A DNA stretch of 64,000 bases from Candidatus Dojkabacteria bacterium. Its GTDB lineage: Bacteria; Patescibacteriota; Dojkabacteria; JAHIVN01. The stretch's first letter is position 1. Each line of letters opens with the position of its first letter. A program made the position numbers and the translations under genes. The stretch is from NCBI GenBank assembly GCA_016932045.1, contig JAFGDO010000032.1:21599-85598 (forward strand), given 5' to 3'. Under the pieces are notes generated by a model. That model did no database searches. It had not been told where the DNA came from and saw only the letters and a list, made by a program, of their open reading frames with translations. Positions 10,954-59,468 of the stretch are shown here, piece after piece.

Positions 10954-11715
10954 ATGATTAATTTACAAGATACTTCGGGTTTGCCCCTTCTTTTAAACAC
11001 CCAAGACAATACATTACAACCAGCAGGAGAAATCGATTTTAATTCACTGGAAAGAGTGAAATTGGACAACATACGTCCTGTACTCCTGAATAAGACTTTG
11101 CGTTATCCTCTAGACGTTTACTCTGAGTACTACGATATATGCCTAAAAAAACATACAAAACTATTTGAAAAGCACAAGTTACACTATAACGTTATTCTCT
11201 TGCCTCCTGGCTTACTTGGCATTGAATATAATAAAACACATATTTTTGCTCCAGACAAGGACCAAAATGACATAACTGCTATCGTCGACATATTGCAAGG
11301 ACGCGGAATGATCCTTATTCAGAAAGTAAAGGAAAAAGGGGAATTAGACTTTGATACTGAAGTCAGTTTAGCTACACAATTTAAAGTAAAAAAAGGTGAT
11401 CGCGTTCCAATTCCACAGAAATACATGTATACCTTTATAAACTCTAGTGGTTCTACGCTTGTAATCGGAAGATTATTTGAAGATGACGGCAAGATTGATT
11501 ATAGAAGCATGAGACGGGAACGAGGAATGTCCTACTACTTTATCAGAAAAAATGCCAGACAGGAAATAGTAAGAAATCCACACTACAAGGAAGTTCCAAC
11601 TTTAAAGAGGAAGAAAGCAGACTATTATTCAAGAAAATACAGACTTACCTCATCAAAACCCATCTACACACAATTTACACAAAACCCTCAAAGATTCAGT
11701 TCAATGCTTGTTTAG
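10954..11715 (+). CDS. hypothetical protein (253 aa)
   Basis: Intact ORF directly downstream of a consensus promoter; no recognisable motif. Confidence 0.5.
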   Translation: MINLQDTSGLPLLLNTQDNTLQPAGEIDFNSLERVKLDNIRPVLLNKTLRYPLDVYSEYYDICLKKHTKLFEKHKLHYNVILLPPGLLGIEYNKTHIFAPDKDQNDITAIVDILQGRGMILIQKVKEKGELDFDTEVSLATQFKVKKGDRVPIPQKYMYTFINSSGSTLVIGRLFEDDGKIDYRSMRRERGMSYYFIRKNARQEIVRNPHYKEVPTLKRKKADYYSRKYRLTSSKPIYTQFTQNPQRFSSMLV

Positions 11716-11761
11716 GTATCTCTTCACTTTGATAAATATAGATTTATGCTATAATACAGCA

Positions 11762-12172
11762 AGATTAATATTAAAAGCATCCGACCTCAAAATCATTGGG
11801 GAAAGCTGCAGGAAGAACCGATTCATTGTTCAGTACTTGTACTGAGTGAGTCCTGAGTTTATCGAAGGACGAGTCGAAGTAGAACCTGCCGGGTAAGCCC
11901 GTTAAGGCTGCCGTGCCCTGCTTGTCCTGATCCTGAATTTAATGAAGGAGAAGGAAGCGAATCCCGCTTAGCCAGCCTAGTCGGCAGACAGGCGGGAGGA
12001 GTCAAAGGGAAGAGCGATTAATATGATTAAACTATCGATCCGATAAGATTAATCAATATAATCGAATTTAAGGTGGTACCACCTGAATTCAACTAATGAT
12101 TATTAATTAGGTAAAAAGGTCCTTGTATTAATATCAATATTGGTATTAGTACAAGGACTTTTTTTACTGTAT
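11762..12172 (+). promoter_or_regulatory. putative T-box riboswitch leader of ileS. It contains a GC-rich core shared with the serS leader
   Basis: Long untranslated leader with a possible promoter (CTTTGA/TTGATA ... TATAAT at 11750-11755). It is GC-rich and structured inside an AT-rich genome. It carries AATTTAAGGTGGTACCACC at 12066-12083, matching the T-box consensus AANNNGGGUGGNACC. Immediately after comes the intrinsic terminator hairpin ggtccttgta...tacaaggac plus a T7 run (about 12118-12165). It lies upstream of an aminoacyl-tRNA synthetase gene. Confidence 0.5.
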
Positions 12173-12339
12173 GACTAAATTTCCGAAACACAATAAATGC
12201 TATACAAACCATTAGATAAAAAAGGTCAAATATTCGTTGAAATTGATGGCGAAAATTAAAAAGTATAAAAAGTTTAAACCAATCTCAAAGATGTTAGAGT
12301 AAATAAGTGAAACTTAATTAAATTATAAAATTCTTAAAA

Positions 12340-15261: not shown

Positions 15262-15385
15262 GGTATAATATACAGTGAATTAAATCAAATTATTTCTGAA
15301 GCTCTGGATTATGACTCAAAAGGTACTAACTACTCTTAAGTGGCTCCGCATCTACAACGTTTGTCTGGCATCTTTATAAACTGTT

Positions 15386-15685
15386 TTGTTACTGCTTTAT
15401 TGCGGATGGTCAATATTTGTAATTACGCAGTCTGCTTTGGGAGGAGAAGATAAACCACCGATTATTTATACAATATGCGTGACTGTAATGCTTCTTCCCA
15501 TGATAGCTGTGGCTATCACTTACATCATAGGAGCATTGAAGGTTTACACACAAAAGAAATCCGTATGGGTACTTCAGATCGTACTTGTTGCAATCGGCAC
15601 GAGTTCTTTACTTACCTTAGTTCCTTGTATATTTTTGCTCATGAGTCTTTTGTCAGATGAGGTACAGGATTACTATAAAAAGTAA
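15386..15685 (+). CDS. hypothetical small membrane protein (99 aa)
   Basis: ORF with two to three hydrophobic helices (IFVITQSALGG...; VMLLPMIAVAITYIIGA; LVAIGTSSLLTLVPCIFLL). Weak support. Confidence 0.3.
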   Translation: MLLLYCGWSIFVITQSALGGEDKPPIIYTICVTVMLLPMIAVAITYIIGALKVYTQKKSVWVLQIVLVAIGTSSLLTLVPCIFLLMSLLSDEVQDYYKK

Positions 15686-15894
15686 CTGAATCTTTTGCTA
15701 TAGTAAAACCATAGCAGTTTCCTTTTTATAAATCTATAAAGTCTTTTCAGCATTTCTAGAGAGCTCAGAATTAAATTCCTATAAATTTAACGCTACACTC
15801 TAAATAAGGTAACAGAAATTGCTTTTTCTCCCTTTTTTGTGGTAAAAACGGATATAATTAAATATTTATTCTGAGGAATAGTAGGTTTTTTCAG

Positions 15895-16175
15895 GTCTTA
15901 AGCAAACCTTGCAGCTGAAAGAAGGCAGATGTGCAAAAAACCAAACGCGCTTCAGTGAAACACTACAGAGAACTCCCTTCGGGACAGTACTTGTAGGGAC
16001 ACAATTTATTGTGTCCACAAGGAATAATTAGTAATAATTATTCACAAATGAGTGGTACCACGAGGGTAAACCAGATCAAAGATCGGTCCACCCTAAAAAG
16101 CTCTCGTCTCATAACAATCCAGCCAAAGGCTGACAAACAATTGTTAAGAGACGAGAGTTTTTTGTTTTGGAAGGA
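15895..16175 (+). promoter_or_regulatory. putative T-box riboswitch leader of argS
   Basis: Stem-I-like region gcagctgaaagaagg...; CGC (an Arg codon) in a candidate specifier context; and agtacttgtag, which also occurs in the ileS leader. The T-box motif AAATGAGTGGTACCACGAGGG sits at about 16047-16067. The terminator hairpin gctctcgtctc (16100-16110) / gagacgagag (16148-16157) is followed by TTTTTT. The ORF-track start at 16009 lies inside this leader and is rejected. Confidence 0.6.
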
Positions 16176-16212
16176 ATACTGTAAAATAGTTAATATTATA
16201 AAACTAAAAAAA

Positions 16213-18783
16213 ATGAAATTTAAAGTTTCACCGGAAATATTTGAAAAGTACCCGAATCTCATAGAGGCTATCGTCATTCTTAAAAACATTGATAATACTG
16301 TGGACGGCAAAGAGATAATTGAAATATTAAGGAACGAAGAAGAAAAAAAGAAGAATACATTATCAACAATTCAGCTGTCTAGCCATCCGGCTATCCAACC
16401 ATGGCGAGACGCATTCAAATCTTTCGGCTCTAAACCGAACAAATTCTCCTCATCAGTTGAAGCATTGTTAAAGAGGGTAGTTAAGGGGAACGAATTGCCA
16501 GATATAAACCCCCTTGTAAATCTCTACAACTACTGCTCTGTTAAGCACATCCTACCTTTCGGAGGCGAGGATTTCTCAGGAGTTTATGGAAATATGGAGC
16601 TCAAACATTGCGCTGGTGACGAGGAGTTTATTCCTATCATGTCAAAAGAGAACGAACCTCCAGATAAAGGTGAGGTCTCCTGGCTGGATGATCAAGGGGT
16701 AACTTGTAGAAAGTGGAACTGGAGACAGTGTGATAGAACAAAAGTTACAGAAAAAACAAAAGAAGGGTACTTCATTATTGATGGAATTCCCCCCGCCAAG
16801 AAAGAAGATATCAATGAAGCAGCTGAAGATTTCATCAAGCTGGCTAAGAAATATTTAAATGCTCGTGGAGAAATATACTGGCTGGATAGGAAAAATCCGG
16901 AGGTTGAAGTTAACATAAAAACCAAAGTAGCTGAAAGCTCTCAGCTGCCAGCTACCAACCTAAGAAAAGAAATGATAAAAACTCAAAAGATAAATAAGTC
17001 AACAAAAGATTTCTACAAAAAGAATCCGCTTGAAGATATGGTTGATGAAAGTCTAGTAAAGTACAAAGTAAGAGACCTTGTCTGGGAAGCAATAAAAAAA
17101 GCTAAGTATGGCAAGTACTTAAAGAAAGAAGATATAAAAGTCGAACATCCGCAGAATGAAGAATTCGGTGATTTTTCAACAAACGTGGCAATGGTTCTAG
17201 CGGGTAAATTAAAGAAAAAGCCAAACTTCGTTGCCGACGTGATTCAAGAACACATACCATCAAGAAACGTTATTCAGCATGTCTCGCTCAAAGAAGCTTT
17301 TATAAACTTCCATCTAAATCCAAAGTGGCTTGCAAATGAGATAAACAAAATACTTAAAGAAAAAGACACATACGGGGACTCATTGAAATCAAGAGAATTT
17401 AAGCTAATTGTTGAATTTGGACAGCCAAACACTCATAAGATGCCTCATATAGGTCACTTATTTTCATATATGTATGGAGAAAGTATAGCGAGATTAACAA
17501 AAGCAATGGGCCTTGAGATTTTTAGAGCTAACTATCAAGGAGATGTAGGTCCTCATGTTGCAAAATGTATCTGGGCTTTTATGAAGAACAAACCAGGTAT
17601 TCCAAAAACTCTAAGAGAAAAAGCAGGGCTATTACAAAAGATGTATCAGGAAGGTGCCACCGCTTATAAAGAAGATGAAAAAGCTAAAGAGGACATAGAT
17701 AGAATTAATAAAATGATTTATCTAAAGGACAAAAAGATCGATGCTATATACAAAGAGACAAGACAGTGGAGCGTAGACTTTTATGAAGAATTCGAAAAAA
17801 GCATCGGTGTACACTACGATAGATACTATTTTGAATCGGAAGTCGCAGAACTTGGGGAAAAAATCGTTAAGGACAATATCGGCAAAGTTTTCAAAGAGAG
17901 CAAAGGAGCGGTTATATTTGAAGGAAGCAAATTTGGTCTTCATGATAGGGTATTTATCACCAAAAGAGGTACGCCAACATACGAAGCAAAGGACATGGGG
18001 CTTCAAACTATAAAGTATAAGGAGTGGCCTTTTGATTATATGATGATATTTACAGCCCATGAACAAAGTGAATATTTTAAAGTGGTTATCAAAGCTCTTG
18101 AAGAGCTTAACCCAGTATTTCAAGATAGAATAAGACACTACGGTTTTGGAATGGTAAATCTAAAAAGTGGAAAAATGTCTTCAAGAACTGGCAATATTAT
18201 TACAGGAATAGGTCTTGTTGAACAAGCGATAGAAGCTGTAAAAAAATTAATCAAAGATAAAAACGATTTATCAGAAAAGGAGAAAGAAAAAATAGCTGAA
18301 AAAGTTGCTATAGCAGCAATAAAATACTCTTTCTTAAAAAATAATCCTTTTCAAGACTCAGTTTTTGATTTTGAAGAGAGCATAAACTTTGAAGGGAACT
18401 CTGGCCCATACCTTCAATATACTTATGCCAGGGCAAAATCAATTCTCAAGGAAATCGAACAATCTACAATCTACAATCTACCTTCCTCGCCGGCAGGCGG
18501 GCAATCTTCGAAAGATTTTAACACTGAAGAACTTCTAATTCTAAGAACATTATACAAGTTCCCTGAAGTCGTCTTCGAATCGGGCATGAATCTTGCCCCT
18601 AACCTACTCTGCTCCTATCTATTCGACCTAGCTCAGAAGTTCAATCTGTTTTACAAGAAACACAAAGTATTAAAAGCTAAAAACGAAGAGCGAAAAGCAA
18701 GACTCGCAATTACTGCAGCTACAGCACAGGTGATAAAGAATGGCCTTGGTTTGCTCGGGATAGAAGCACTTGAGAAAATGTAG
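16213..18783 (+). CDS. argS: arginyl-tRNA synthetase with an N-terminal B3/4-domain extension of about 290 aa
   Basis: Preferred start MKFKVSPEIF at 16213, after the T-box terminator. N-terminal region PWRDAFKSFGSKPNKFSSSVEALLKRVVKGNELPDINPLVNLYNYCSVKHILPFGGEDF...CRKWNWRQCDRTKVTEKTKEGYFIIDG matches the B3/4 domain (PheT editing-like, Pfam B3_4). The ArgS body follows, with the HIGH motif PNTHKMPHIGHL and the C-terminal DALR anticodon-binding region. One continuous ORF. Confidence 0.88.
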   Translation: MKFKVSPEIFEKYPNLIEAIVILKNIDNTVDGKEIIEILRNEEEKKKNTLSTIQLSSHPAIQPWRDAFKSFGSKPNKFSSSVEALLKRVVKGNELPDINPLVNLYNYCSVKHILPFGGEDFSGVYGNMELKHCAGDEEFIPIMSKENEPPDKGEVSWLDDQGVTCRKWNWRQCDRTKVTEKTKEGYFIIDGIPPAKKEDINEAAEDFIKLAKKYLNARGEIYWLDRKNPEVEVNIKTKVAESSQLPATNLRKEMIKTQKINKSTKDFYKKNPLEDMVDESLVKYKVRDLVWEAIKKAKYGKYLKKEDIKVEHPQNEEFGDFSTNVAMVLAGKLKKKPNFVADVIQEHIPSRNVIQHVSLKEAFINFHLNPKWLANEINKILKEKDTYGDSLKSREFKLIVEFGQPNTHKMPHIGHLFSYMYGESIARLTKAMGLEIFRANYQGDVGPHVAKCIWAFMKNKPGIPKTLREKAGLLQKMYQEGATAYKEDEKAKEDIDRINKMIYLKDKKIDAIYKETRQWSVDFYEEFEKSIGVHYDRYYFESEVAELGEKIVKDNIGKVFKESKGAVIFEGSKFGLHDRVFITKRGTPTYEAKDMGLQTIKYKEWPFDYMMIFTAHEQSEYFKVVIKALEELNPVFQDRIRHYGFGMVNLKSGKMSSRTGNIITGIGLVEQAIEAVKKLIKDKNDLSEKEKEKIAEKVAIAAIKYSFLKNNPFQDSVFDFEESINFEGNSGPYLQYTYARAKSILKEIEQSTIYNLPSSPAGGQSSKDFNTEELLILRTLYKFPEVVFESGMNLAPNLLCSYLFDLAQKFNLFYKKHKVLKAKNEERKARLAITAATAQVIKNGLGLLGIEALEKM

Positions 18784-31664: not shown

Positions 31665-33452
31665 ATGAATCCTAAACTTATGAAAAAAAGAACTGTCTTC
31701 CCACTTCTTCTAATAGTAATTGGAGTATTAGGACTTGGGACAGCTATCTATATAGTACTAAGTCCTGAAAGTTTAGATATCAGAGAAGAGGCTGCTGGGG
31801 GAAGAATTATCAGAGTATGCTCAACAGGCTGTGATTTTGGTGATATAAACCAAGCCTTTGCAGCTGCACAAGATAATGACACCATATTTCTAGATACAAA
31901 CACATACGATGGCATGGGAGTACTCTCAAGTAGTGCCTCACTTAAGCTTCCCGATTCAGTAACGAATTTAACCATCAAGGGGAAAGGCAGAGATTCAACT
32001 ACATGGAAACTATCCTTTGATGCAGGAGGCAATGGTCATCTTTTACACATCGAAAAGTTAAACGGAGTAACGGTAAATATTCAGGACATTACGTTTAAAG
32101 AGAACAAACATTCAAACTCAAGTGTTCATATCTATGGGGACAATGCTAACTGTACTTTTAACTTCTCCAGTGTTGCAGTTACAGGAAGTAAAGCTGCAGG
32201 CATCTACTACGATGGAAAAAATACTGGAACAGTCTCGAGTTCTTACTTTGCTTCAAATGAATGGCCTGGTGTTTCTATTCATGGACAAGCCAGGGTGACT
32301 ATTACCGATAGTACGTTTGAGAAACACGAGCACCAGGGTGTTGATGTGAAGGATAGTGCCAATGCTGACATTTCAAACTGTGAGTTCACTGGAAACAATA
32401 AAAAGTATGATGAAAAAGACGCAGATAATAACACTTTTACATCTGGAGCAATTCAATTCTATGAGAACTCAAAAGGATCAATCAAAAACAATAATTTAAA
32501 TAATAATCTTGGCTATAATATAAAGATTGGCAGGGGTTCATACGGCAGCATTACTGATAGTTGTGTTGTAGAAATAATGGGAAATCGTATTTCAAATGCC
32601 AAAAATAAAAGCGGAATTACAATAAATGGCCGTTCTCAAGTTGAGGTAAAGCACAACCTAATTCTAAATAATAACGATTCCGGTGTTAATATAAGTAACG
32701 AATCAAACGTAAAGATTATTAACAATACAATCTATGCTAATGGCGATTCAGGTATATTAGTCTGGGACAACTCTGTAACTCAGGTAAAAAATAATATCAT
32801 TGTGAACGGTCAAGAATATGGAGGAATTTGTGGATGGGATTTTAGTGGTTCGATAGATATTTCCTATAACGACGTTTGGAATAACAAAGATGTGAACTAT
32901 TGTACAGGGGGTAATTCCTCGACAACTGTTTCAGCTGGTACTGGAGATATATCAAAAGATCCCAAATTTGTTTCAGCTAGTGACTTTCACTTACAATCAG
33001 ATTCCCCAGCTATTGACACTGGAGATCCTGACCCTCAGTACAATGATCCTGATGGAAGTAGGAATGATATGGGCGCATATGGGGGACAAGACGCTTGTAA
33101 ACTCGATCCAAATCTTTCCGGCTGTAGCTGTACTCCAAGCTGCACGGGTAAACAATGCGGCCAGGATGATAGCTGTGGAGGTAAATGTACAGGCTGTCCT
33201 TCGGGTCAGACCTGCAATACTACTTCCTGGCAATGTGAAGCTGGAGCAAGTAACTGTCGTATGGCTGATGTATGGGGACCAGACAAAAAGCCCGATGGGA
33301 AGATTAATATCTATGACTTTTCTTACATACAGGGAAAATGGAAAACAGCTGACACAAAAGCAGATATCTGGGGACCCGAACAGAAAGCCGATGGAAAAGT
33401 TAATATCTATGATATTTCTAAAGTTTCTGGCTGCTGGAAGGCAAGTATATAA
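31665..33452 (+). CDS. secreted right-handed parallel beta-helix protein with a Cys-rich module and a C-terminal dockerin-like duplicated Ca-loop segment
   Basis: Signal/TM VFPLLLIVIGVLGLG; repeated N-x-I/V beta-helix rungs (NNNDSGVNISNESNVKIINNTIYANGDSGILVWDNSVTQVKNNIIVNG); Cys-rich SGCSCTPSCTGKQCGQDDSCGGKCTGCPSGQTCN. The extreme C-terminus holds two tandem segments, DKKPDGKINIYDFSYIQGKW and EQKADGKVNIYDISKVSGCW, each fitting the dockerin/EF-hand-like 12-residue loop D-x-x-x-D-G-x-[IV]-N-x-x-D plus a helix. Confidence 0.6.
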   Translation: MNPKLMKKRTVFPLLLIVIGVLGLGTAIYIVLSPESLDIREEAAGGRIIRVCSTGCDFGDINQAFAAAQDNDTIFLDTNTYDGMGVLSSSASLKLPDSVTNLTIKGKGRDSTTWKLSFDAGGNGHLLHIEKLNGVTVNIQDITFKENKHSNSSVHIYGDNANCTFNFSSVAVTGSKAAGIYYDGKNTGTVSSSYFASNEWPGVSIHGQARVTITDSTFEKHEHQGVDVKDSANADISNCEFTGNNKKYDEKDADNNTFTSGAIQFYENSKGSIKNNNLNNNLGYNIKIGRGSYGSITDSCVVEIMGNRISNAKNKSGITINGRSQVEVKHNLILNNNDSGVNISNESNVKIINNTIYANGDSGILVWDNSVTQVKNNIIVNGQEYGGICGWDFSGSIDISYNDVWNNKDVNYCTGGNSSTTVSAGTGDISKDPKFVSASDFHLQSDSPAIDTGDPDPQYNDPDGSRNDMGAYGGQDACKLDPNLSGCSCTPSCTGKQCGQDDSCGGKCTGCPSGQTCNTTSWQCEAGASNCRMADVWGPDKKPDGKINIYDFSYIQGKWKTADTKADIWGPEQKADGKVNIYDISKVSGCWKASI

Positions 33453-33509: not shown

Positions 33510-34136
33510 ATGAAAAAGATTCTGCTCACTACAACACCCTTTATCATTGTCTCTCTGTTCTTGCTCTCGCTTGCTACTGATGTCTGGGGGCAAAGTGCCT
33601 CACTTTACTTTTCACCCTCATCACAATCCGTTAGTTTAAACCAAGAATTTTCAGTGCAAGTTATGATAAATACTAGCGGAGTTAATGTTAATGGCGTTAC
33701 AGCAGATTTTACCTTTCCAACTGATCGCCTGCAGGTTGTAAGTATTGATGATGCAGACAGTGAATTTACACAGGAACTCGAGTCAACTTTTAGTGGCGGA
33801 ACAGTCTATATCTCTCGAGGTACTCCTGGAGGTGAAAGTTTTAATGGAACCGGAAATGTTGCAACTGTTAATTTCAGGGCAACTGGATCGGGAACAGCTA
33901 CTTTAGAATTTACTTCTGATGCTACTGTAACTGATACTGGGGCAAATAATGTTCTGGGAAGCACTTCTTCTGCCACAATCGCCTCTGGATCTTTACCGGC
34001 AGCCGGAGTTTTTGATAGACCGGTAACAATTATTATTGGTGCCTTTGCTTTGATACTTATCTGTATCGGAGTCATAGCTATATTACAGTATAAAAAAGAA
34101 AAAAATCATCAACTTGAGCTGACATCAACCGGTTAG
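33510..34136 (+). CDS. cohesin-like domain surface protein with a C-terminal sorting-signal-like LPAAG + TM + basic tail
   Basis: Signal peptide. Domain NQEFSVQVMINTSGVNVNGVTADFTFPTDRLQVVSID...GTVYISRGTPGG...GNVATVNFRATGSGTATLEFTSDATVTDTGANNVLGS resembles the cohesin (PF00963) pattern. C-terminus SLPAAGVFDRPVTIIIGAFALILICIGVIAILQYKKEK. Confidence 0.45.
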   Translation: MKKILLTTTPFIIVSLFLLSLATDVWGQSASLYFSPSSQSVSLNQEFSVQVMINTSGVNVNGVTADFTFPTDRLQVVSIDDADSEFTQELESTFSGGTVYISRGTPGGESFNGTGNVATVNFRATGSGTATLEFTSDATVTDTGANNVLGSTSSATIASGSLPAAGVFDRPVTIIIGAFALILICIGVIAILQYKKEKNHQLELTSTG

Positions 34137-34165: not shown

Positions 34166-34894
34166 ATGCTAAACAAAATTAGAGCAGTTATAGTCATACT
34201 CACCGCCATAGTATTTTTAGGCCTCATGCCGATAAATACTTTTGCTTCTGAAGCAAAGCTCGAGTTTAAACGAGTTGAAACAAATAACTCCACTTTAGCA
34301 GTCGATATCTATCTAGATACTGGCAGTATAAATATCAACGCAGTTACCGCCGATTTCACTTACCCTGCTGAAGTACTAAAAGTGAAAAATATCGATATTG
34401 AGAATTCTCTATTTTCTCAGTTTATAGAAAAAGATTATTCACAATCCGGAACTGTTTATATCTCATGTGTTTCCTTTAATGGCATATCAAGAACAGGCGT
34501 AGTAGCAAGGGTAACCTTTGAAATACTTGGGCCTGGCACAGCACAACTCGAGTTCACTCAGGATGTTGCTGTTTTAGACACGGATAGGTCTGTAAACGTT
34601 CTTGGAAGTGCTGAGCCGGTACTCTTCAACGTATCAGAGGACCTTGCTGTCCTTCCACAAACAGGCACAGAAGAACAGATTGCACTTGCAACAGGACTCA
34701 TAGCCTTACTTACTTTAGTAATGATTGCTTTGTTTGCAATTTTCGGTTTTACGATATGGGGAGGCGTATATTTCTCGCTCGGGAAATGGCAAGTTAAAAC
34801 TGAAGGGGGAATAGAGCTAGGCAAAAAAGACGGTAAGGGAAAAGGCGTCAGAAAGGCCACAGCAAAGTCACAGAAAAAGAAAAAAACAAAATAA
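34166..34894 (+). CDS. cohesin-like domain surface protein with an LPQTG sortase-type sorting signal
   Basis: Paralogous to the preceding gene (VTADFTYPAEVLKVKNIDI...GTVYISCVSFNG...VARVTFEILGPGTAQLEFTQDVAVLDTDRSVNVLGS). C-terminal LPQTGTEEQ, then a hydrophobic segment IALATGLIALLTLVMIALFAIFGF and a Lys-rich tail. Confidence 0.45.
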   Translation: MLNKIRAVIVILTAIVFLGLMPINTFASEAKLEFKRVETNNSTLAVDIYLDTGSININAVTADFTYPAEVLKVKNIDIENSLFSQFIEKDYSQSGTVYISCVSFNGISRTGVVARVTFEILGPGTAQLEFTQDVAVLDTDRSVNVLGSAEPVLFNVSEDLAVLPQTGTEEQIALATGLIALLTLVMIALFAIFGFTIWGGVYFSLGKWQVKTEGGIELGKKDGKGKGVRKATAKSQKKKKTK

Positions 34895-51462: not shown

Positions 51463-51498
51463 TTTTTGACCCTGTAAAAAAGCAGGGTCTTTTTTTTG
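51463..51498 (+). terminator. rho-independent terminator after hup
   Basis: Hairpin gaccctg-taaaaaag-cagggtc (51468-51489) followed by TTTTTTTT (51490-51497). Confidence 0.6.
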
Positions 51499-51523: not shown

Positions 51524-52603
51524 TTAGGCAAGCCCCCTAAGAAACGCTGGGTGACAAAAATTACCAAGCATTGAGTGTGTTCCTTCACAGGCAGTCCAGC
51601 AGTTAGGACATTTCTTAAGATATATAGTCTTAAGTAAATTTTTGTACTTCTTGCTACTTATAATCTTCCTTAAATCGTAATCAAAGTCTCGGATATTACC
51701 CAATTTTGAATTCCAAATAATACAAGGATATAAAAAGCCTTGAGGATCAAGAAATACTGAAGAAGCTAATGATTTACAGGGTAGGGGAGTAGTGCCACTT
51801 TCCAGGTATTCAATGGCTAAATTTTGAAATATCCTCTCTGCCATTGCAGCTACACCACCCATTGCGTTGTAATGTTTCAAAAAAAATCTCAGGTCCCGCG
51901 TTGCTAGTTTTGTATACTTATTCTGAACTTTTTTAGCAGTGTTATCACCATAATAATGGCTTGAAGTATTAAATGTATTTATATGAATATCGTTGACTGA
52001 AAAGTCTGATATTTCCTCACTCATCTTATTTACAAAACTTTCAAACTTCCCGGCACTCTCTGGATAAATAGTATATCCGATCTGTGCCTTCACTCCAGGC
52101 AACTTTCTTAATTCCTTGTAAGAGGTTACGGCTTTTGTATACGCCCCTTTTAAGCCTCTAAGTTTGTCGTGAAGAATACGTTCACCATCCAAACTTACTG
52201 TAACCATAAGAAATGGAATTTGCTTTTTGCTGAGTTTCCTGGCCATATCTACTATCCTCTCCGTTAACAACCCATTTGTTGTCATTGTTAGCATATACAG
52301 GTCCTTATTAAATTCAGTAATAATGTCAAAAACCTTTTCTATGTCCTCTCTCAGGAAAAGCTCCCCTCCCGTTAGTGTCATCCAGTTAAATTGATAGTTC
52401 TTAAAAAATCTCTCTATTTCATACAACACTAGTTCATCTCTGGGTTTAAGCTTCCAGATATTGCAGTTCAGACATCGGTGGTTGCATCTATATGTCAAGG
52501 CAAAGTTTAACTTATAGGGCCTTGAAAGAGGCAGATTCGATCTAAAAACTTTCCTATAGAATCTAAAAGTTTTGTTCATTCTTTTATTCTCTAACTCAGG
52601 CAA
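51524..52603 (-). CDS. radical SAM enzyme with a C-terminal SPASM/twitch-like Cys cluster
   Basis: CNHRCLNCNIW (CxxxCxxC) near the N-terminus and C-terminal cysteines (...PLPCKS...YPCIIWN...CPNCWTACEGTHS). 359 aa. Confidence 0.75.
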   Translation of the reverse strand: MPELENKRMNKTFRFYRKVFRSNLPLSRPYKLNFALTYRCNHRCLNCNIWKLKPRDELVLYEIERFFKNYQFNWMTLTGGELFLREDIEKVFDIITEFNKDLYMLTMTTNGLLTERIVDMARKLSKKQIPFLMVTVSLDGERILHDKLRGLKGAYTKAVTSYKELRKLPGVKAQIGYTIYPESAGKFESFVNKMSEEISDFSVNDIHINTFNTSSHYYGDNTAKKVQNKYTKLATRDLRFFLKHYNAMGGVAAMAERIFQNLAIEYLESGTTPLPCKSLASSVFLDPQGFLYPCIIWNSKLGNIRDFDYDLRKIISSKKYKNLLKTIYLKKCPNCWTACEGTHSMLGNFCHPAFLRGLA

Positions 52604-52642
52604 AACAAATCATATCAATTTAATCTGCAGATTGGAAATCGA

Positions 52643-54169
52643 TTAAGGAGCACAATAAATCTTGGGATTGTAGAATCCATAGGCATCTTCACCAGGACCA
52701 ACTATTTCTAAAAGTAACTCCCAATTTTCAGGGATTTCATGATTTTGTATAAAGAGAGGAAACCTGCCCATCGTTTCTAAATGCTCAAATGATACTCTCG
52801 AACCATCAACTATCACGTAAGCATCCTTAATGTCCTCTGGCAAATTAACCGAATCAATATTGTATGTCTCATATCTATATCCACTATAGGTGTCTATATA
52901 GGCAAGTGTGCCCCAATCAGTATAGATCTTCCTTCGGGGCTGAGTTTCAAGATACTCATAAGTCCTGTGAAAATCATAAAAAGAGATCTCGTAGACTTTC
53001 CACGACTTAACTAAATAGTAGGGAGTAGTAAATATCGTTACAGTCAATGCGAATAAAGAAACGTACCAATAATAAACTTTATGAGCTTTGAATTTAAAAT
53101 CCTTCAAAAGAAGCACTACTGCTCTAGATATCAACAGTACAGTGAACGGAACAAATCGAATCAGATACCTCATCCACTTAATCATAGGCCTTCCGGTTGT
53201 TGTCATAATCCCGAACTGCATATAAGCAAATATCGATAAAACAAAAACCGCAAATACAAGAGATTTTTTATCTCTTCTGTAAATCAAATATGGTAAAAGC
53301 AAAACAAATAGATAGGCAAATAAACCAAAATGGCCCTCATGTGAAAAGAAATTTGGATCAATAACACGGAATAAAACTCGCGGATAATAATTTAGCGCTG
53401 TATTCGTATTTACTCGTATCTCCTCCTCATGCCCGACTTTAAGCCGCCATAACCATTCATGCCTATAAAAATAATAAAGAATATTTTCTGCCATAAAAAT
53501 AGGTAAGAAGCCTACTAATATGAGAATATACTCTTTCCTAAACTTCCTATTGAGTATTATATATATGACAAAGAATGGTGCTAAAAATACACCTGAAATA
53601 TTCGCAAGATAACTGCAGCCCCAAAATACTCCAGATAGTAATAGCATAATGTTTGAGGAAATTCGGAGCCCCAAAAATGGTGATTTCTTTTCAGCACATA
53701 AAAATGAATATATACTCAAAAGCCAGAATAAGGTTAAGGGTATACTTGGAACAAGTTGAGTTGCATAAACAGCTTCAAGAGGAAAAATCGAATACAAAAA
53801 AGCCGACAACAATGCCGTCTTCTCACCAAAGATAAGCTTTCCAATTTTATAAGTAAGAATAATGCTAAGTAGAGAACAAAAAAGCGGGAAAGTTCCAGCA
53901 TTGACATTAGAAGCTCCAAAAATTCTATAGAGAATGCTTAGTGGCACAACTACCATAAGTCTTAAAGAAGCCATAATTTCAAAGGGGTAGGCTGAAAAAC
54001 CATGATTAGCAAAATTCCAGGCTGTATTAGAATAAACAAAATCATCATTACCCCCGATACCAACAAAGAAGTACAGACGTAAAAAAAGTGCAAAAGCCAA
54101 TATAACTATTAGCTTAAAGTCTATATTTTTTAATTTAATGAGAATTTTTTTAGTCACTTCCTTCTTCAT
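52643..54169 (-). CDS. GT-C fold membrane glycosyltransferase (PMT/ArnT-like, GT39/GT83-type)
   Basis: 508 aa and polytopic. The first periplasmic loop carries GGNDDFVYSN (acidic DD/DE motif), and the architecture matches PMT_2-type dolichyl/polyprenyl-phosphate-sugar-dependent transferases. Confidence 0.55.
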   Translation of the reverse strand: MKKEVTKKILIKLKNIDFKLIVILAFALFLRLYFFVGIGGNDDFVYSNTAWNFANHGFSAYPFEIMASLRLMVVVPLSILYRIFGASNVNAGTFPLFCSLLSIILTYKIGKLIFGEKTALLSAFLYSIFPLEAVYATQLVPSIPLTLFWLLSIYSFLCAEKKSPFLGLRISSNIMLLLSGVFWGCSYLANISGVFLAPFFVIYIILNRKFRKEYILILVGFLPIFMAENILYYFYRHEWLWRLKVGHEEEIRVNTNTALNYYPRVLFRVIDPNFFSHEGHFGLFAYLFVLLLPYLIYRRDKKSLVFAVFVLSIFAYMQFGIMTTTGRPMIKWMRYLIRFVPFTVLLISRAVVLLLKDFKFKAHKVYYWYVSLFALTVTIFTTPYYLVKSWKVYEISFYDFHRTYEYLETQPRRKIYTDWGTLAYIDTYSGYRYETYNIDSVNLPEDIKDAYVIVDGSRVSFEHLETMGRFPLFIQNHEIPENWELLLEIVGPGEDAYGFYNPKIYCAP

Positions 54170-54182
54170 ACCTTATCACTGT

Positions 54183-55829
54183 TTACTCTAAATTATCAGT
54201 TGACTCACTTTTAATTCCTTTAATCTCATATAAAACATATTCTGTTCCCCTCGTTTTCTGTTGGATGACACTTTCAAGCTCAAAATTCTGTAGAACATAA
54301 TTTTGGCAAAAATCAGCAATACTAGATTGTTCTGGTGAAAGAGAACACCAAAAGCCAAAGTGAAAATAATATTTCTCGCCTTTATTGGTATCTAAATAAC
54401 TTTGAACTAAAGCCTTATCATAAAGAATATCCGTTGATTTTGTGTTAATTTCATCAATATGATAACTGAATCCAGTATTTGTAAAAACGTAGTCATCTTC
54501 ATCTATATGATTCTTTATATCGTTACCTATAAACTCTATATCCCAAAGTGCCTGCCAACCTTCTTGACCTCGATATTTCATTCTCGGAATCAAAAGTACT
54601 CCATTAACTAAAATTGGGATAACAAGAAATAAAATTGTCCTTGTATCTCCGAACTTTTTCATAATGTTAAATAATCCTATTGAGAGACTGACAATAAACG
54701 GCGTTATGGAGGTAAGAGCGTAACGTATGTCCGCACCATATCTATAGGAACCTGCATAGAAGAAGAGGTATACACCAAAACTAAATATAAATGCCAAGGA
54801 AAAGAATTCTATAATCCTAGATCTTTTCGAGATGAAAATACCTAAAATTAATAATAGTGCTAATATAGGGAATTCTTTATTTTGAATAAAAAATCCTATA
54901 TTTGCATTAAAATTTCGAACAAAGTAAGCAGTGCTAAAGGTAGCCCCATCCGTGGCTCCCCACGGATCGTTTCTGACATGTAAATAGTGAATTAGAATTG
55001 GTATCAGTAACAAGAAACCTAGTAGCAAATATGACATTGGGACGAAGGATTTCTGCTTAATTATAGAGAGTGAGATCTTATGATAACTAACAAGTAGATA
55101 GATAATTGGAAACACAAGAAGCACAAATTCGTATCTTGTGTAAACTGATAATACGAATAGAAAAATTCCAAGTCCTAAGAAGTCTGCCTTTCGAGTTTTT
55201 ATAAATACCAAGAATGCAAGTAAAGTGGCCGTTAAGTACAAGGAACTTATCGGCTCTGCAGCTGCAGAATTATGCCAATGTGCAACAATAGGAATGAGAG
55301 AGTATAAGAAAACAGAAAATATACCAACTTTAAAATCCTTTGTTACTATATATGTAGTAATAAATATCAAAATTATAGAAACAGCAAAAACTATATTGTT
55401 AAAAAGAAATGCGTTTGCACGAGATACATCAAAGATTCTAAAAAACATAGAAAGAGAAAGAGCATATCCTGGAGGTTGCTTATTTAACAACCATGTATTA
55501 CAGAAATATTCACCGTTCAAAAAATTACCATCAGTACAATACTGATTACGTTCGAACGCAATAACATTTTGTGCAGTATTTATATATATATCCTCGTCGT
55601 ATAAGATTCTCTCAGATTTCGGCGAAATAAAACTATTAAAAAAGACCAATCCCGTAATTATTAGTAACAAAAATATCAACTGTCTCTTTGTAAAATTCTT
55701 TGTAAAAAAATTCACAATCAATCGGCTATTCTTTAGGAAGATTATAAGAATAAGCGTGATAAGGATGTAGAAAATTAGAGGCTCATACTTTTGCAAAAAA
55801 TCTCTAACAGCGAGGCTTTCGAAATTCAT
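54183..55829 (-). CDS. second GT-C fold membrane glycosyltransferase (PMT/ArnT-like)
   Basis: 548 aa and polytopic. An early loop carries ILYDEDIYINTAQN (DE motif). Similar topology to the preceding gene. Confidence 0.5.
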   Translation of the reverse strand: MNFESLAVRDFLQKYEPLIFYILITLILIIFLKNSRLIVNFFTKNFTKRQLIFLLLIITGLVFFNSFISPKSERILYDEDIYINTAQNVIAFERNQYCTDGNFLNGEYFCNTWLLNKQPPGYALSLSMFFRIFDVSRANAFLFNNIVFAVSIILIFITTYIVTKDFKVGIFSVFLYSLIPIVAHWHNSAAAEPISSLYLTATLLAFLVFIKTRKADFLGLGIFLFVLSVYTRYEFVLLVFPIIYLLVSYHKISLSIIKQKSFVPMSYLLLGFLLLIPILIHYLHVRNDPWGATDGATFSTAYFVRNFNANIGFFIQNKEFPILALLLILGIFISKRSRIIEFFSLAFIFSFGVYLFFYAGSYRYGADIRYALTSITPFIVSLSIGLFNIMKKFGDTRTILFLVIPILVNGVLLIPRMKYRGQEGWQALWDIEFIGNDIKNHIDEDDYVFTNTGFSYHIDEINTKSTDILYDKALVQSYLDTNKGEKYYFHFGFWCSLSPEQSSIADFCQNYVLQNFELESVIQQKTRGTEYVLYEIKGIKSESTDNLE

Positions 55830-55843
55830 TTTTCAGAATGAGT

Positions 55844-56539
55844 TCAAAAGAATAAATACTTAACAAGAGAAAACAGATACCTGTGTGCCTGTTTTAATAC
55901 ACTGATTCTTGAAGTTCCATACTTCCTTTTATATTCGTGAGTAGGAACTTCGTCAATTCTATACCCCTTTTTAAGTGTTTTCATAATCATTTCCTGTTCA
56001 ATTGTCGTAGAATCCTCCTTAAGGTCTAATTCCTTCAGAACCTTTCCCTTAACAGCACGAAATCCATTCTGGCTGTCACTTAGACGAACATTAAATCGCG
56101 CGTTAATGCACCAAGTCACAAAAGCCGATCCTGCAAGACGTAAGAATTCATCAAAAGTTCCATGAAGTTCATCAGAGCCGCCAAGCAATCTGCTACCAGT
56201 AACATGATCCGCCTTGGATTCAAAAATAGGTTTAACCAGTTTAGGAATTTCATCTGGATCATGCGAACAATCTGCATCCATAAAAACAAACACCGGATAA
56301 TTCTTCTTTTTAACTGCAATTCGTATCGCATTCCCTTTTCCTTTACCTTCATCATATAAAATGCTAGCCCCAGACTTACGTGCTATCTGAACAGTCTTAT
56401 CTTTTGAATGACCGTCCACTATACATACCTCAGAAGCATATTTTTTAGCACGATTCACAAGATCCCCAATAGTCTTTTCCTCATTAAGAGTGCAAATGAC
56501 AACCCCAATATTATTTTTCCACTTGCATGACCTAGGCAT
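55844..56539 (-). CDS. GT2 polyprenol-phosphate sugar synthase (Dpm1/Ppm1-like; dolichol-phosphate mannosyltransferase family)
   Basis: 231 aa. VVICTLNEEKTIGDLV ... VCIVDGHSKDKT ... VFMDADCSHDP (DxD) is the typical GT-A DPM-synthase pattern. Confidence 0.7.
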   Translation of the reverse strand: MPRSCKWKNNIGVVICTLNEEKTIGDLVNRAKKYASEVCIVDGHSKDKTVQIARKSGASILYDEGKGKGNAIRIAVKKKNYPVFVFMDADCSHDPDEIPKLVKPIFESKADHVTGSRLLGGSDELHGTFDEFLRLAGSAFVTWCINARFNVRLSDSQNGFRAVKGKVLKELDLKEDSTTIEQEMIMKTLKKGYRIDEVPTHEYKRKYGTSRISVLKQAHRYLFSLVKYLFF

Positions 56540-58267
56540 TTACTTCTTTGTTATTAAGTAATTGTTCATTATCAAGCAATCAACATCTGATTCGACAAGC
56601 ACCTCGAGGGCATCAGAAGGGCTATTCACAATCGGATACCCGTGCAAATTAAAACTCGTATTTAGAATCACACCAAGGCCAGTTCTCTTCTTTACCTCCC
56701 TAATCAATTCATGGTAAACCTTGTTATGGCTTAATACAATTTGCGGTCTACAAGATCCGTCAATATTTATTACACCATTAAGATCTTTTCTTTTTTTATA
56801 TTTAACAAAATACCCCATTGTCATGAACTCGTTTGGAGTTCCCTTTAACTCAGTAAATAACTTTTTTGCATCTGCAAGTAACATGGAGGGACAAAATGGT
56901 TGATACCAAACACGTTTTTTTATCTTTAGATTTAAGTCGTCCTTTATGCTCTCAGAACCAGGAAGGGCCAAAATAGATCTATGCCCAAGCGCTCTTGGAC
57001 CAAACTCCATGTTACCTTGATACCAAAGAACTATATTCCCCTTTGCTACCAAAGAGGCTCCTGTCTTTACTGGATCAACTTCCCGTAGATTCACTTTATA
57101 TCTTTCTATTTCCTCTCGGATTTGATCCTCTGGAAATTCTGGTCCCAGAAAGCAATCCCGAAATTTTACCTTTCTTATTCCCTGATGTTTATAAACGTAA
57201 AATGCTACTGCACCAAGTGCTAGACCTCCATCTCCCATATGTGGGAAGATAAACATATCTGTAACCTCATTTAGTGACATTATTTTATGATTCAACTTTA
57301 TATTTGCAGCAACTCCACCAGCAAAAACAATTTTATTATAACCCGTCTTTTTAAGCCAAAATCTTACAAATTTTAATGCATAATATTCCAAGGTCTTTTG
57401 AGCCAAATACGCGAATCTTTCAAACGGGTATTTCCACAGTATCCTTTTCAACTCTTTATACATACAGTTAGAACTATATTTAGCTCTAAGTTCTCCTTTC
57501 TGAAAAGTAAAAAAGCTCATGAGCGGATTCTCTTCTTTTTTAATGGGTATAGAATAATCTGCAAGGGCCATAGCCTTTCCCTCATCTTCAAGCTCTCTCA
57601 TATTAAGCAGATTTGTCACATGCTCGAAAAATATTCCCAACGAATGACGACCAGACTGCTTATGCACCAAATTAAGCTCTTTTCCGTCCGCCTCCCAAAC
57701 AGAACCGGACAAACCATCGCCAATACCATCAAGTGTTATCACGAGACACTTTTTAAATTTAGAAGACATATAAGCACCATATGCATGAGCAGTATGGTGA
57801 TCAACGTTTACTAGTGTTTCTGGATCTATTCCCACGTTCTTCAGGTTCTTTTTAATAATGAAATCTGAAATAGCCCTAGAGAGCAAATTAGGCGAGAGTT
57901 CAGTAAAAAAGTACTTAAATCTTTTTTGAAAATTCGTAAAAGACCCTGGATAGATTTTTTTTCTTCTTATCAGATAATATTTTTCTTTAAGTCCTGGAAT
58001 TAGCCTTGTAAGTGTTTTGGCAGGATCAGAAGTAGAATATGCTGCTATTTGAATTTCACCTGGATCTATCTCCAAATACTTTAAGCCTCGTTTAATGGAG
58101 TTGAGCGGGAACCCAACCTCAAGTTTCCTTCTCGTAAATCTCTCTTCATTAGCTGCAAATAATATCTCACTACCTCGTAAGAAAGCAGCTCCTGAATCAT
58201 GTCCATCCCATATCCCAAGTGTTATATTTTGTTCTATATTTTTCCGCTTCATAAAGGATAAGTACAA
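56540..58267 (-). CDS. carbamoyltransferase (NodU/CmcH family)
   Basis: 575 aa. N-terminal NITLGIWDGHDSGAAFLRGSEILFAANEERFTRRK is the ASKHA/Kae1-like carbamoyltransferase N-domain; the C-terminal YrdC-like part contains LNTSFNLHGYPIV. Confidence 0.75.
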   Translation of the reverse strand: MYLSFMKRKNIEQNITLGIWDGHDSGAAFLRGSEILFAANEERFTRRKLEVGFPLNSIKRGLKYLEIDPGEIQIAAYSTSDPAKTLTRLIPGLKEKYYLIRRKKIYPGSFTNFQKRFKYFFTELSPNLLSRAISDFIIKKNLKNVGIDPETLVNVDHHTAHAYGAYMSSKFKKCLVITLDGIGDGLSGSVWEADGKELNLVHKQSGRHSLGIFFEHVTNLLNMRELEDEGKAMALADYSIPIKKEENPLMSFFTFQKGELRAKYSSNCMYKELKRILWKYPFERFAYLAQKTLEYYALKFVRFWLKKTGYNKIVFAGGVAANIKLNHKIMSLNEVTDMFIFPHMGDGGLALGAVAFYVYKHQGIRKVKFRDCFLGPEFPEDQIREEIERYKVNLREVDPVKTGASLVAKGNIVLWYQGNMEFGPRALGHRSILALPGSESIKDDLNLKIKKRVWYQPFCPSMLLADAKKLFTELKGTPNEFMTMGYFVKYKKRKDLNGVINIDGSCRPQIVLSHNKVYHELIREVKKRTGLGVILNTSFNLHGYPIVNSPSDALEVLVESDVDCLIMNNYLITKK

Positions 58268-58343
58268 TTGTATGGTATTATATAAAAACGCAAGAAAATA
58301 TTGAAATAAATTTGAGGGCAGACAGAAGGATATATATGAAGTA

Positions 58344-59468
58344 CTAATTCCTTCTTATCTTTTTAAGCAGTTTCTTTTCAAACAACTCTTTTTTCTTACC
58401 CTTAGAAAATAATGATAAGAACCTTAGTCCACCTACTGCAACTTTTTCTCCAATAGGAACAAAAACTGTCCTTCCAAGATTAAAAACATAAGTGACTACT
58501 CCTAACATAATAAGTGTGACAGCAACAAGTGAACTATCTCTTGCATCATCTAGTACACCTGTTGGTGGAAGAGAAGTAATAGCAGTTGTTAGAGAAGTTG
58601 TAAAGGTAGTTGTTAAAGATGTCGTTCCTGGCGTTGTTGGTATAGTTGTTCCTGGTGTTGTTGGTATAGTTGTTCCTGGCGTTGTTGGTATAGTTGTTCC
58701 CGGTGTTGTTGGTATAGTTGTTCCCGGTGTTGTCGGTATAGTTGTTTGCCTAGTTGTTGTGCTGGTTGTTGTTGTTGTCGTTGTAACCTGCAAAGGACAG
58801 CAGCACCCTACATATGCATTGTTGCAATCAGAACAACCTCCAACTGCTCTTCTTGCTCCTGCTGTACTGCAATCACATTTGTATTCATCTGAATTACAGC
58901 TATAGTCGCAGTTACACAAATTTCCTCTACATGTCGGGCCGCCACTCCCACAGAAAAGCATCCCTCCATTTGGACATACAGATGTCGGATTTGCATCCCA
59001 TATGATGCTGTGAGTACAGTTGCCAGCAGTACAACTTGCTGTTGTAAGACAACATCTATTGCCAGGGCTACCGTTCCAGCCACAAGTGCAATCCCCTCCA
59101 GCTGTCGTTGCTTGAGTAGTCGCAGCAGTCGTTGCTTCAGCACACATACCACCTGCACCTGTAGGCTGACAGTTGTGCACATTATCGGTACACCAATCAT
59201 TATTATCATTCTGCCACGCATCTCTTTCGCACGTTTCGCAGCAGTTTCCATCCGGTTTAGGATCACTACAGAATGTTTCTGTGTATCTAAAATGGGTATA
59301 GCCTGCATCTTGACAAGCACCAGCTGCACTAAGTTCCGGCGTAACTGCTTTCTCCTGGCTCAATCTCCAGCCGATATAAATAGCAGCACCGGCAAGTCCT
59401 GCAGTAATAACAAAAATGATAATTAATACTAATCGTGACTTCTTACTCATAGGAGTAGGTTCTGACAA
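58344..59468 (-). CDS. Cys-rich secreted surface protein with a (T)TIPTTPG tandem-repeat linker and a C-terminal LPPTG + TM sorting-signal-like segment
   Basis: 374 aa. N-terminal TM/signal; roughly 40 Cys in CxC/CC-rich modules; a poly-Thr run; six-plus PTTPGTTI repeats; then SLPPTGVLDDARDSSLVAVTLIMLGVVTYVF followed by a basic tail. Overlapping plus-strand ORFs (58492..58905, 58814..59005, 59010..59426) are alternative-frame artefacts of this gene. Confidence 0.6.
   Translation of the reverse strand: MSEPTPMSKKSRLVLIIIFVITAGLAGAAIYIGWRLSQEKAVTPELSAAGACQDAGYTHFRYTETFCSDPKPDGNCCETCERDAWQNDNNDWCTDNVHNCQPTGAGGMCAEATTAATTQATTAGGDCTCGWNGSPGNRCCLTTASCTAGNCTHSIIWDANPTSVCPNGGMLFCGSGGPTCRGNLCNCDYSCNSDEYKCDCSTAGARRAVGGCSDCNNAYVGCCCPLQVTTTTTTTSTTTRQTTIPTTPGTTIPTTPGTTIPTTPGTTIPTTPGTTIPTTPGTTSLTTTFTTSLTTAITSLPPTGVLDDARDSSLVAVTLIMLGVVTYVFNLGRTVFVPIGEKVAVGGLRFLSLFSKGKKKELFEKKLLKKIRRN
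58627..58746. repeat. 24-bp tandem repeat (about 5 units: cctggYgttgttggtatagttgtt) inside the Cys-rich protein gene
   Basis: Direct reading finds units at 58627-58650, 58651-58674, 58675-58698, 58699-58722 and 58723-58746, with degenerate flanking copies. Each encodes TTIPTTPG on the minus strand. Confidence 0.8.

Follow-up and report, generated by a model that had tools for sequence, protein, structure and literature searches.

A candidate O-glycosylation cassette pairing a carbamoyltransferase with a GT-C glycosyltransferase beside a poly-threonine surface protein of Candidatus Dojkabacteria

One stretch of DNA from a genome of Candidatus Dojkabacteria, a lineage of the Candidate Phyla Radiation (CPR), contains a cluster of six minus-strand genes set among housekeeping genes (serS, pdf, yifB, dnaG and several aminoacyl-tRNA synthetases). 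We refer to the whole 64-kb stretch that was analyzed as the window. The cluster encodes a radical S-adenosylmethionine (SAM) enzyme (51524..52603), two membrane glycosyltransferases of the GT-C type (52643..54169 and 54183..55829), a family 2 glycosyltransferase (GT2; 55844..56539), an O-carbamoyltransferase (CT; 56540..58267) and a Cys-rich, poly-Thr surface protein (58344..59468). The six open reading frames (ORFs) lie precisely where an earlier reading of the DNA letters alone, hereafter the sequence-only reading, had placed them, and the families that it had named were borne out by Pfam and NCBIfam. The spacing between the six co-directional genes is 0 to 76 bp. A G+C-rich hairpin (51468..51489), picked up as a terminator-like site in our scan, lies between the convergent radical SAM and HU genes and is likely to be the end of the transcription unit; no comparable terminator-like site is present between the six genes. 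Co-direction, short gaps and the terminal hairpin suggest that the six genes would be co-transcribed. We use the term cassette for the enzyme-encoding genes of the cluster and for their counterparts in other genomes.

The CT possesses the two domains of the TobZ/NodU/GdmN class, a Kae1-like N domain (Carbam_trans_N, 98.1 bits) and a YrdC-like C domain (Carbam_trans_C, 191.6 bits). Its best matches in the PDB are GdmN and TobZ (about 1e-62), and NovN is also among the closest solved CTs. The metal-site residues H152, H153, H156, D175 and D341 are invariant in our CT alignment (A1). On the basis of domains and metal-site residues the protein is predicted to be a TobZ/NodU-type O-carbamoyltransferase; its score with the NodU equivalog model (105 bits, cutoff 1000) does not place it in NodU itself. 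It is >50% identical to proteins of many phyla. The likely start codon is the ATG at 58252, and the public gene begins 5 codons inside the 575-aa ORF. The adjacent GT2 is a soluble protein of 231 aa with no transmembrane (TM) segment, a Glycos_transf_2 domain (PF00535, 83.1 bits) and a DAD motif. Its best NCBIfam match is AglJ (146.7 bits), followed by a haloarchaeal dolichyl-phosphate-hexose transferase, PpgS and ArnC, all below the equivalog cutoffs. The match to the ArnC model is weak (32.4 bits, cutoff 529), as is that to PgfS (E 4.3e-5). The best PDB match is the Pyrococcus dolichyl-phosphate-mannose synthase 5mlz (E 1.5e-11, residues 10-225). The GT2 domain with its DXD motif, and the nearest characterized relatives, are those expected of a polyprenyl-phosphate-sugar synthase of the Dpm1/AglJ/PpgS/ArnC type, which is the function we predict for it.

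The larger of the two GT-C proteins (54183..55829), which we term the core GT-C, has a PMT_2 domain (40.8 bits), about 10 TM segments and a C-terminal soluble domain. Its D78-E79 pair, encoded at 55593-55598, is invariant in 43 homologues, and the loop that contains it probably faces outward, to judge from the K/R-rich loop before TM2. The accessory GT-C (52643..54169) belongs to a different subfamily. It matches PMT_2 (54.7 bits) and also the protein O-mannosyltransferase (PMT) domain PF02366 at 26.9 bits against a cutoff of 22.7, which is below its own PMT_2 score, and it contains N-D-D immediately after TM1. Acidic loop-1 motifs are therefore present in both proteins, as the sequence-only reading had claimed. 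The PMT identity that it had also proposed is not supported. The only match of the core GT-C is PMT_2, with no match to PF02366, and PMT_4TMC (PF16192) is absent from both window GT-Cs, in contrast to a true PMT encoded by a syntenic relative. A phmmer search of both GT-Cs and a 43-sequence core GT-C profile against all PDB sequences returned no glycosyltransferase, including no solved PMT or ArnT, so no choice between PMT and ArnT can be made at the sequence level. The AlphaFold2 model of the core GT-C (predicted local distance difference test score 90.5) has a generic GT-C fold. As far as can be judged from sequence and model, neither assigns the window GT-Cs to PMT over ArnT. The ArnT partners ArnA, ArnB and ArnD are encoded neither in the cluster nor elsewhere in the window. 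The accessory subfamily is found in some cassette loci only (our loci L003, L014, L019, L041, L056, L060, L061, L063 and L071); its role may be to attach a further sugar or to act on another acceptor.

The radical SAM enzyme (likely start 52579) matches Radical_SAM (PF04055, 38.6 bits) and SPASM (PF13186, 26.1 bits). With a CX3CX2C motif (CNHRCLNC, encoded at 52463-52486) and a Cys-rich, partial SPASM/twitch C-terminal domain, it is a predicted radical SAM/SPASM enzyme. It reaches no NCBIfam equivalog cutoff, the best match being the PTO1314 family (73.9 bits versus 306). The public gene call (L001 8871-9776) encodes 301 aa without the CX3CX2C motif; since homologues are 350-354 aa long, the true start is upstream of the public call, probably the ATG at residue 9 of the 359-aa ORF. 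The alternative radical SAM enzyme of the cassette, of B12 type, is closest to HpnJ and AprD4 (PDB 6fd2, E 4e-37). HpnJ acts on a lipid-linked aminosugar, and AprD4 is a sugar diol-dehydratase. Two classes of radical SAM enzyme with sugar-modifying relatives thus occupy one slot, and because the CT and radical SAM enzymes are cytoplasmic and cofactor dependent, we infer that both would tailor the sugar before it is flipped across the membrane. A different arrangement is seen on an archaeal-looking contig (L094 8001-9885 and 14783-17062), where a SPASM-type radical SAM enzyme is paired with a GT2 only, with no adjacent CT or GT-C; an S-layer protein (PF05124) is encoded some 5 kb away from this pair.

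The sixth gene (58344..59468) encodes a protein that matches no Pfam or NCBIfam family; the start at 59450, slightly internal to the ORF, is the likely one judging from homologues. An N-terminal TM segment is followed by a Cys-rich region (27 Cys from residue 52 to residue 224) and then by a linker of >70 residues with >55% Thr (about residues 228-299), in which a poly-Thr tract precedes five TTIPTTPG repeats that begin at residues 242, 250, 258, 266 and 274. The repeats are encoded by a tandem array on the minus strand at 58624..58746 (Tandem Repeats Finder: period 24 bp, 5.1 copies, 94% matches). The C-terminus carries a signal that was absent from the sequence-only description: a sortase-type sorting motif, LPPTG (58557..58571, minus strand), a hydrophobic segment (residues 314-332) and a K/R-rich tail that, at about 42 aa, is unusually long for a sortase substrate. 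Most members of the Cys-rich family keep TLPxTG; some homologues have a degenerate version. A search of 1.84 billion proteins yielded 14 representatives of this small family at E<=1e-10. The resemblance of three further loci (L090-L092) to the family is confined to its N-terminal anchor or its tail; they show no glycosylation genes and were set aside as uninformative. Within the window the Cys-rich protein is the sole poly-Thr ORF among 62 ORFs of >=120 aa. Signals of the same C-terminal kind are present in two small plus-strand proteins elsewhere in the window, one with an LPAAG signal and a weak cohesin match (33510-34136) and the other with an LPQTG signal and a very long basic tail (34166-34894), both downstream of a beta-helix/NosD-like protein (31665-33452). 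This genome therefore uses the combination of LPxTG, TM segment and long K/R tail repeatedly.

The cassette extends far beyond the Dojkabacteria. A scan with the CT alignment, using one genome per GTDB species, detected CT relatives in at least 440 species genomes from more than 12 bacterial phyla and from DPANN archaea, and returned 80 loci. Bacterial cassette loci were found in the Planctomycetota, Ignavibacteria/Chlorobiota, Verrucomicrobiota, Acidobacteriota, Thermodesulfobacteriota, Nitrospirota, Spirochaetales, Lysobacteraceae, Bdellovibrionales and WOR-3, and archaeal loci in the Aenigmatarchaeota and Woesearchaeota. To determine locus content, six-frame ORFs were searched by phmmer with the window proteins and with their counterparts from Acidobacteria/Aminicenantes. 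In the fully flanked set, i.e., the 35 loci with >=5 kb on either side of the CT gene, the core GT-C family is present without exception (35/35), the GT2 orthologue in 26 and a radical SAM enzyme in 27. The latter is of B12 type in 16 loci and of SPASM type in 11, and the two types never occur together. Loci of the Pirellulales type have a five-gene set like that of the window, with the difference that it includes two core-type GT-C paralogues. All-versus-all clustering of neighbors for a fifth component (flippase or acceptor) yielded only antisense shadow ORFs and one FecR/poly-Thr family, found in about 9 Thermodesulfobacteriota loci; beyond the cassette genes themselves, conservation extends to no further family of neighbors. 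Look-ups of gene context at individual loci gave the same picture. We found no description of the cassette in the literature; it is widespread and apparently so far undescribed.

The Cys-rich family is absent from cassette loci other than the window and one further locus (L003), and the cassette occurs in hundreds of genomes without it. Contrary to what the sequence-only reading had suggested, the system is consequently not dedicated to the adjacent protein. A functional link to Thr-rich proteins in general is supported by what lies around the cassette. Taking as poly-Thr any ORF with at least 14 Thr in 30 residues, and counting gene positions outward from the cassette in 82 distinct loci, poly-Thr ORFs account for 10/122 genes at position 1, 6/107 at position 2 and 6/91 at position 3, versus 0/76 at position 4, 1/67 at position 5 and 0/135 at position 6 and beyond. 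The difference between positions 1-3 (22/320) and positions 4 and beyond (1/278) is significant (Fisher p=1.4e-5), and none of the 320 genes inside the cassette qualifies. The association is seen in 12 of the 40 clusters defined at 70% CT identity. The poly-Thr neighbors are mutually unrelated, and all have a signal peptide or lipoprotein signal. They include glycoside hydrolase (GH) enzymes, some with carbohydrate-binding modules (CBM) or a ricin domain (GH10+CBM60, GH12+ricin, GH16+CBM6 and GH62), FecR-domain proteins with C-terminal poly-Thr, lipoproteins and a Cys-rich protein in a Woesearchaeote. What they have in common is the Thr tract and no domain. The FecR-like family of the Thermodesulfobacteriota, whose members begin with a signal peptide and have a poly-Thr tail at the C-terminus (L039 4868-6487; L046 301-1326; L047 6387-7703; L050 6840-7883; L057 5396-6505; L062 13748-14758), is encoded directly beside the B12-type cassette, usually divergently. 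One group of loci with CTs of >70% identity (L006, L014, L018, L027, L040 and L072) carries the labels WOR-3, Pirellulales, Spirochaetales and "uncultured bacterium"; around its cassettes are genes for secreted glycoside hydrolases that contain poly-Thr linkers as well as odd SWWGGG/Cys-rich modules. This group suggests either a recent horizontal spread of the cassette together with genes for carbohydrate-active enzymes, or mis-binning.

Relatives of the Cys-rich protein found by a metagenome scan provide a second line of evidence. Three of them (L087, L088 and L089) retain the gene order PHP-serS-CysRich...HU-pdf-yifB-dnaG without the cassette. In L087 the slot that follows the Cys-rich gene (11160-15877) is filled by a true PMT (PF02366, 101 bits; PMT_4TMC, 90.3 bits) and two unannotated proteins of 552 and 451 aa. 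In L088 (3022-6540) and L089 (11211-14731) it is filled by a 943-aa membrane protein of PF10131, a family that we take to belong to the GT-C clan in Pfam, and a PgfS-like GT2. In L003 a member of the Cys-rich family heads a longer cluster with a GT-C combining PMT and NPCBM domains, a GT2, a radical SAM enzyme, a CT, another GT2 and a core GT-C. The alternative fillings indicate that different GT-C systems alternate beside one poly-Thr surface protein, and this interval, from the Cys-rich gene to HU, has the look of a hotspot in which glycosylation genes vary.

We propose, with moderate confidence, that the cassette encodes an extracytoplasmic, lipid-phosphate-sugar-dependent O-glycosylation pathway that delivers a carbamoylated, radical-SAM-tailored sugar to poly-Thr linkers of exported proteins. 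On the cytoplasmic side of the membrane, the soluble GT2 would join a sugar to polyprenyl phosphate. The CT, dependent on ATP and carbamoyl phosphate, would O-carbamoylate that sugar or its nucleotide precursor. The radical SAM enzyme would also act on this sugar; dehydration, deoxygenation, decarboxylation and oxidation are examples of the reaction it might carry out. Once the tailored sugar has been flipped, the core GT-C with its outward DE loop would move it to Thr hydroxyls in exported poly-Thr linkers, and the accessory GT-C would extend the glycan by a further sugar or serve other acceptors. The Cys-rich, LPxTG-like neighbor is likely to be a substrate, though not the only one. The gene content and the general scheme of the sequence-only reading hold up: a polyprenyl-phosphate-sugar GT2 feeds GT-C transferases, and a CT, which we place in the cytoplasm, accompanies them. 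That reading had named two observations that would tell against it: GT-Cs of ArnT or O-antigen type rather than PMT, and a cassette conserved in genomes that lack Thr/Pro-rich neighbors. The latter was indeed made; however, the GT-Cs are assignable to neither PMT nor ArnT, and poly-Thr proteins are enriched nearby.

Several observations weigh against a pathway to poly-Thr linkers. About 70% of cassette lineages have no poly-Thr neighbor within three genes, and there are none at the loci found through the radical SAM enzyme (L093-L095). The loci are phylogenetically non-independent, and six of the positive ones come from a single CT cluster that bears several phylum labels. On a second contig of the Dojkabacteria (L002) the cassette has no poly-Thr neighbor in the 10 kb available upstream, and its downstream side is truncated by the end of the contig. 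Sequence and fold cannot separate a GT-C with a protein acceptor from one with a lipid or glycan acceptor. Promoter and terminator scans inside the cluster were uninformative and do not suffice to define an operon containing the 58344 gene. We found in the window no flippase, no source of carbamoyl phosphate and no sortase to go with the LPPTG motif, hydrophobic segment and basic tail of the surface protein.

The most serious competing explanation, which we nevertheless regard as rather unlikely, accepts the same carbamoylated, radical-SAM-tailored polyprenyl-phosphate sugar and has the GT-Cs decorate a cell-wall glycopolymer, lipoglycan or membrane lipid, as ArnT, YfhO, GtrC and AftB would exemplify, the Thr-rich neighbor being coincidental. 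PMT_2 is common to ArnT, homologues are labeled as similar to the 4-amino-4-deoxyarabinose (Ara4N) transferase by the Joint Genome Institute, and the majority of cassette loci lack a poly-Thr neighbor, just as most of the genomes lack the Cys-rich family. However, monoderm CPR, diderm bacterial phyla and DPANN archaea share no envelope polymer or lipid, which favors a protein acceptor; nor does a non-protein acceptor explain the distance-dependent enrichment of unrelated poly-Thr secreted proteins, and the same slot beside the same protein is taken in relatives by other GT-C systems, one of them a true PMT. The alternation in that slot can itself be turned into an argument that the cassette O-glycosylates proteins generally and that the 58344 protein is not a substrate, its adjacency reflecting only an insertion hotspot between serS-CysRich and HU-pdf. 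The Cys-rich-to-HU slot does differ among four relatives, as is typical of recombination hotspots, and L002 and L093 have the cassette in other contexts. We consider this improbable, since each alternative filling is itself a GT-C or GT2 glycosylation system and the Thr-rich linker of the 58344 protein has no counterpart in another ORF of the window.

Two further explanations concern the tailoring enzymes. Moenomycin-type tailoring, in which a lipid-phospho-linked sugar is modified by a carbamoyltransferase and a B12 radical SAM enzyme, offers an analogy for a pathway that would end in a carbamoylated glycolipid or phosphoglycolipid, either free or anchored to a lipid, with no transfer to a macromolecule. 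The combination of CT and radical SAM enzyme is typical of natural-product pathways, and the closest solved CTs (GdmN, TobZ and NovN) are antibiotic enzymes. The invariant partner of the CT is, however, a GT-C with an intact DE loop (all 35 fully flanked loci), GT-Cs move sugars from lipid-phosphate sugars to acceptors outside the membrane, and no conserved genes for lipid synthesis or export lie nearby, so that we hold a glycolipid end product to be highly improbable. We give only the slightest chance to the suggestion that the radical SAM/SPASM enzyme is a peptide maturase that introduces a thioether or other crosslink into the Cys-rich neighbor, separately from the glycosylation genes. Its top structural neighbors include SkfB, anSME and SuiB, which mature ribosomally made peptides or proteins, with SkfB tied with BlsE in the fold search; it matches NCBIfam ranthipeptide and sactipeptide maturase models, in every case far below the cutoffs; and the neighbor has Cys in abundance. 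Against this, the same radical SAM family accompanies CT, GT2 and GT-C in 21 loci without a member of the Cys-rich family, the HpnJ/AprD4-like B12-type enzyme replaces it in 39 loci, relatives retain the Cys-rich protein without the radical SAM enzyme, and the Cys-rich domain is exported whereas radical SAM enzymes are cytoplasmic. A role in the manner of ribosomally synthesized and post-translationally modified peptides was therefore rejected as the main explanation.

Two other genes of the window are unusual in ways unconnected with the cluster. A 924-aa arginyl-tRNA synthetase (16009-18783, plus strand) starts with a B3_4 domain (PF03483, 77.9 bits), whose usual place is the beta subunit of PheRS; its fusion to arginyl-tRNA synthetase is unusual. 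A small cupin-type glucose-6-phosphate isomerase (PF06560; 10954-11715, plus strand) belongs to a type known chiefly from archaea and is here encoded in a CPR genome.

Returning to O-glycosylation of poly-Thr linkers as the function of the cassette, a broader proposal can be made more tentatively, as a possibility that falls short of being probable: the CT and core GT-C pair, usually with a GT2 and one or the other radical SAM enzyme, may represent an undescribed cross-domain system for O-glycosylation of poly-Thr linkers. It would then form a third lineage alongside PMT and YfhO/Pgf, and be a candidate for the machinery, still being sought, that O-glycosylates archaeal proteins. If the proposed function is correct, protein O-glycosylation could be recognized in hundreds of uncultured lineages from a single gene signature, a CT gene beside a gene of this GT-C family. 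Among these lineages are CPR bacteria and DPANN archaea, for which the cell surface mediates an episymbiotic way of life. Carbamoylated, radical-SAM-modified sugars would join the chemistry of prokaryotic glycoproteins. The tolerance of poly-Thr linkers in the secreted glycoside hydrolases and surface proteins of these groups would also be explained, as glycosylation would shield them from proteolysis in the way that it does streptococcal Ser/Thr-rich regions. The exchange of one GT-C system for another at a single site beside one surface protein suggests a form of glycan diversification comparable to that of O-antigen loci.

The individual components have relatives in several characterized pathways. 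Like TobZ, NodU, CmcH and GdmN, the window CT has a two-domain architecture and keeps the metal-site His and Asp residues; known members of that class tailor antibiotics or Nod factors, whereas the window CT subfamily is always paired with a GT-C. The sugar-modifying radical SAM enzymes with which comparison can be made are BlsE and, for the B12-type cassette, HpnJ and AprD4, and all cassette radical SAM scores are below the equivalog cutoffs. The pairs ArnC/ArnT, LgmA/B, PpgS/Rv3779 and CsbB/YfhO share with the window the production of a polyprenyl-phosphate sugar by a GT2, followed by transfer outside the membrane by a GT-C. The Arn pathway also shares cytoplasmic tailoring of the sugar, by formylation in Arn and by predicted carbamoylation in the window, and a GT-C of PMT_2 type; in contrast, the window has no ArnA, ArnB or ArnD partners, and the window cassette also differs in its association with poly-Thr proteins. 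With a monoderm CPR host and a cassette that is also present in archaea, lipid A cannot be the common acceptor. The actinobacterial Ppm1/Pmt system (GT39) resembles the window in its Dpm1-like GT2 and a GT-C with a loop-1 Asp-Glu motif, and its targets are Thr/Pro-rich linkers of secreted proteins, like those proposed here. It differs in that the window GT-Cs lack PMT_4TMC, the core GT-C lacks PF02366 and matches no solved PMT, and the additional CT and radical SAM enzyme imply a sugar other than plain mannose.

The closest parallel may be found in streptococci, where the GtrB/PgtC2 and Pgf (PgfS, PgfE, PgfM1 and PgfM2) systems O-glycosylate Ser/Thr-rich extracytoplasmic regions (PMC12041528). 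The Pgf type consists of a GT-A undecaprenyl-phosphate-sugar synthase, a tailoring epimerase and two GT-Cs, with genes beside those of LPXTG adhesins, and the Streptococcus mutans Pgf cluster goes with the adhesins Cnm, CnaB and CbpA (PMC12041528). There are clear differences from the window: the GT-Cs are of YfhO type in Pgf and of PMT_2 type in the window, tailoring is by an epimerase in Pgf and by the CT and radical SAM enzyme in the window, and Pgf is a system of the Firmicutes whereas the window cassette is found in many phyla and in DPANN archaea. The likeness is one of mechanism and layout only, the window cassette being known here from its genes and Pgf from experiment. It comprises a GT-A/GT2 enzyme that makes the polyprenyl-phosphate sugar, one or two GT-Cs and in-cluster tailoring of the sugar, all common to Pgf and GtrB/PgtC2, and, with Pgf, a position adjoining genes for LPXTG-type surface proteins with Thr-rich regions. 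By analogy, the pathway modeled for the window would resemble the streptococcal GtrB/PgtC2 and Pgf systems even more closely than it does Ppm1/Pmt.

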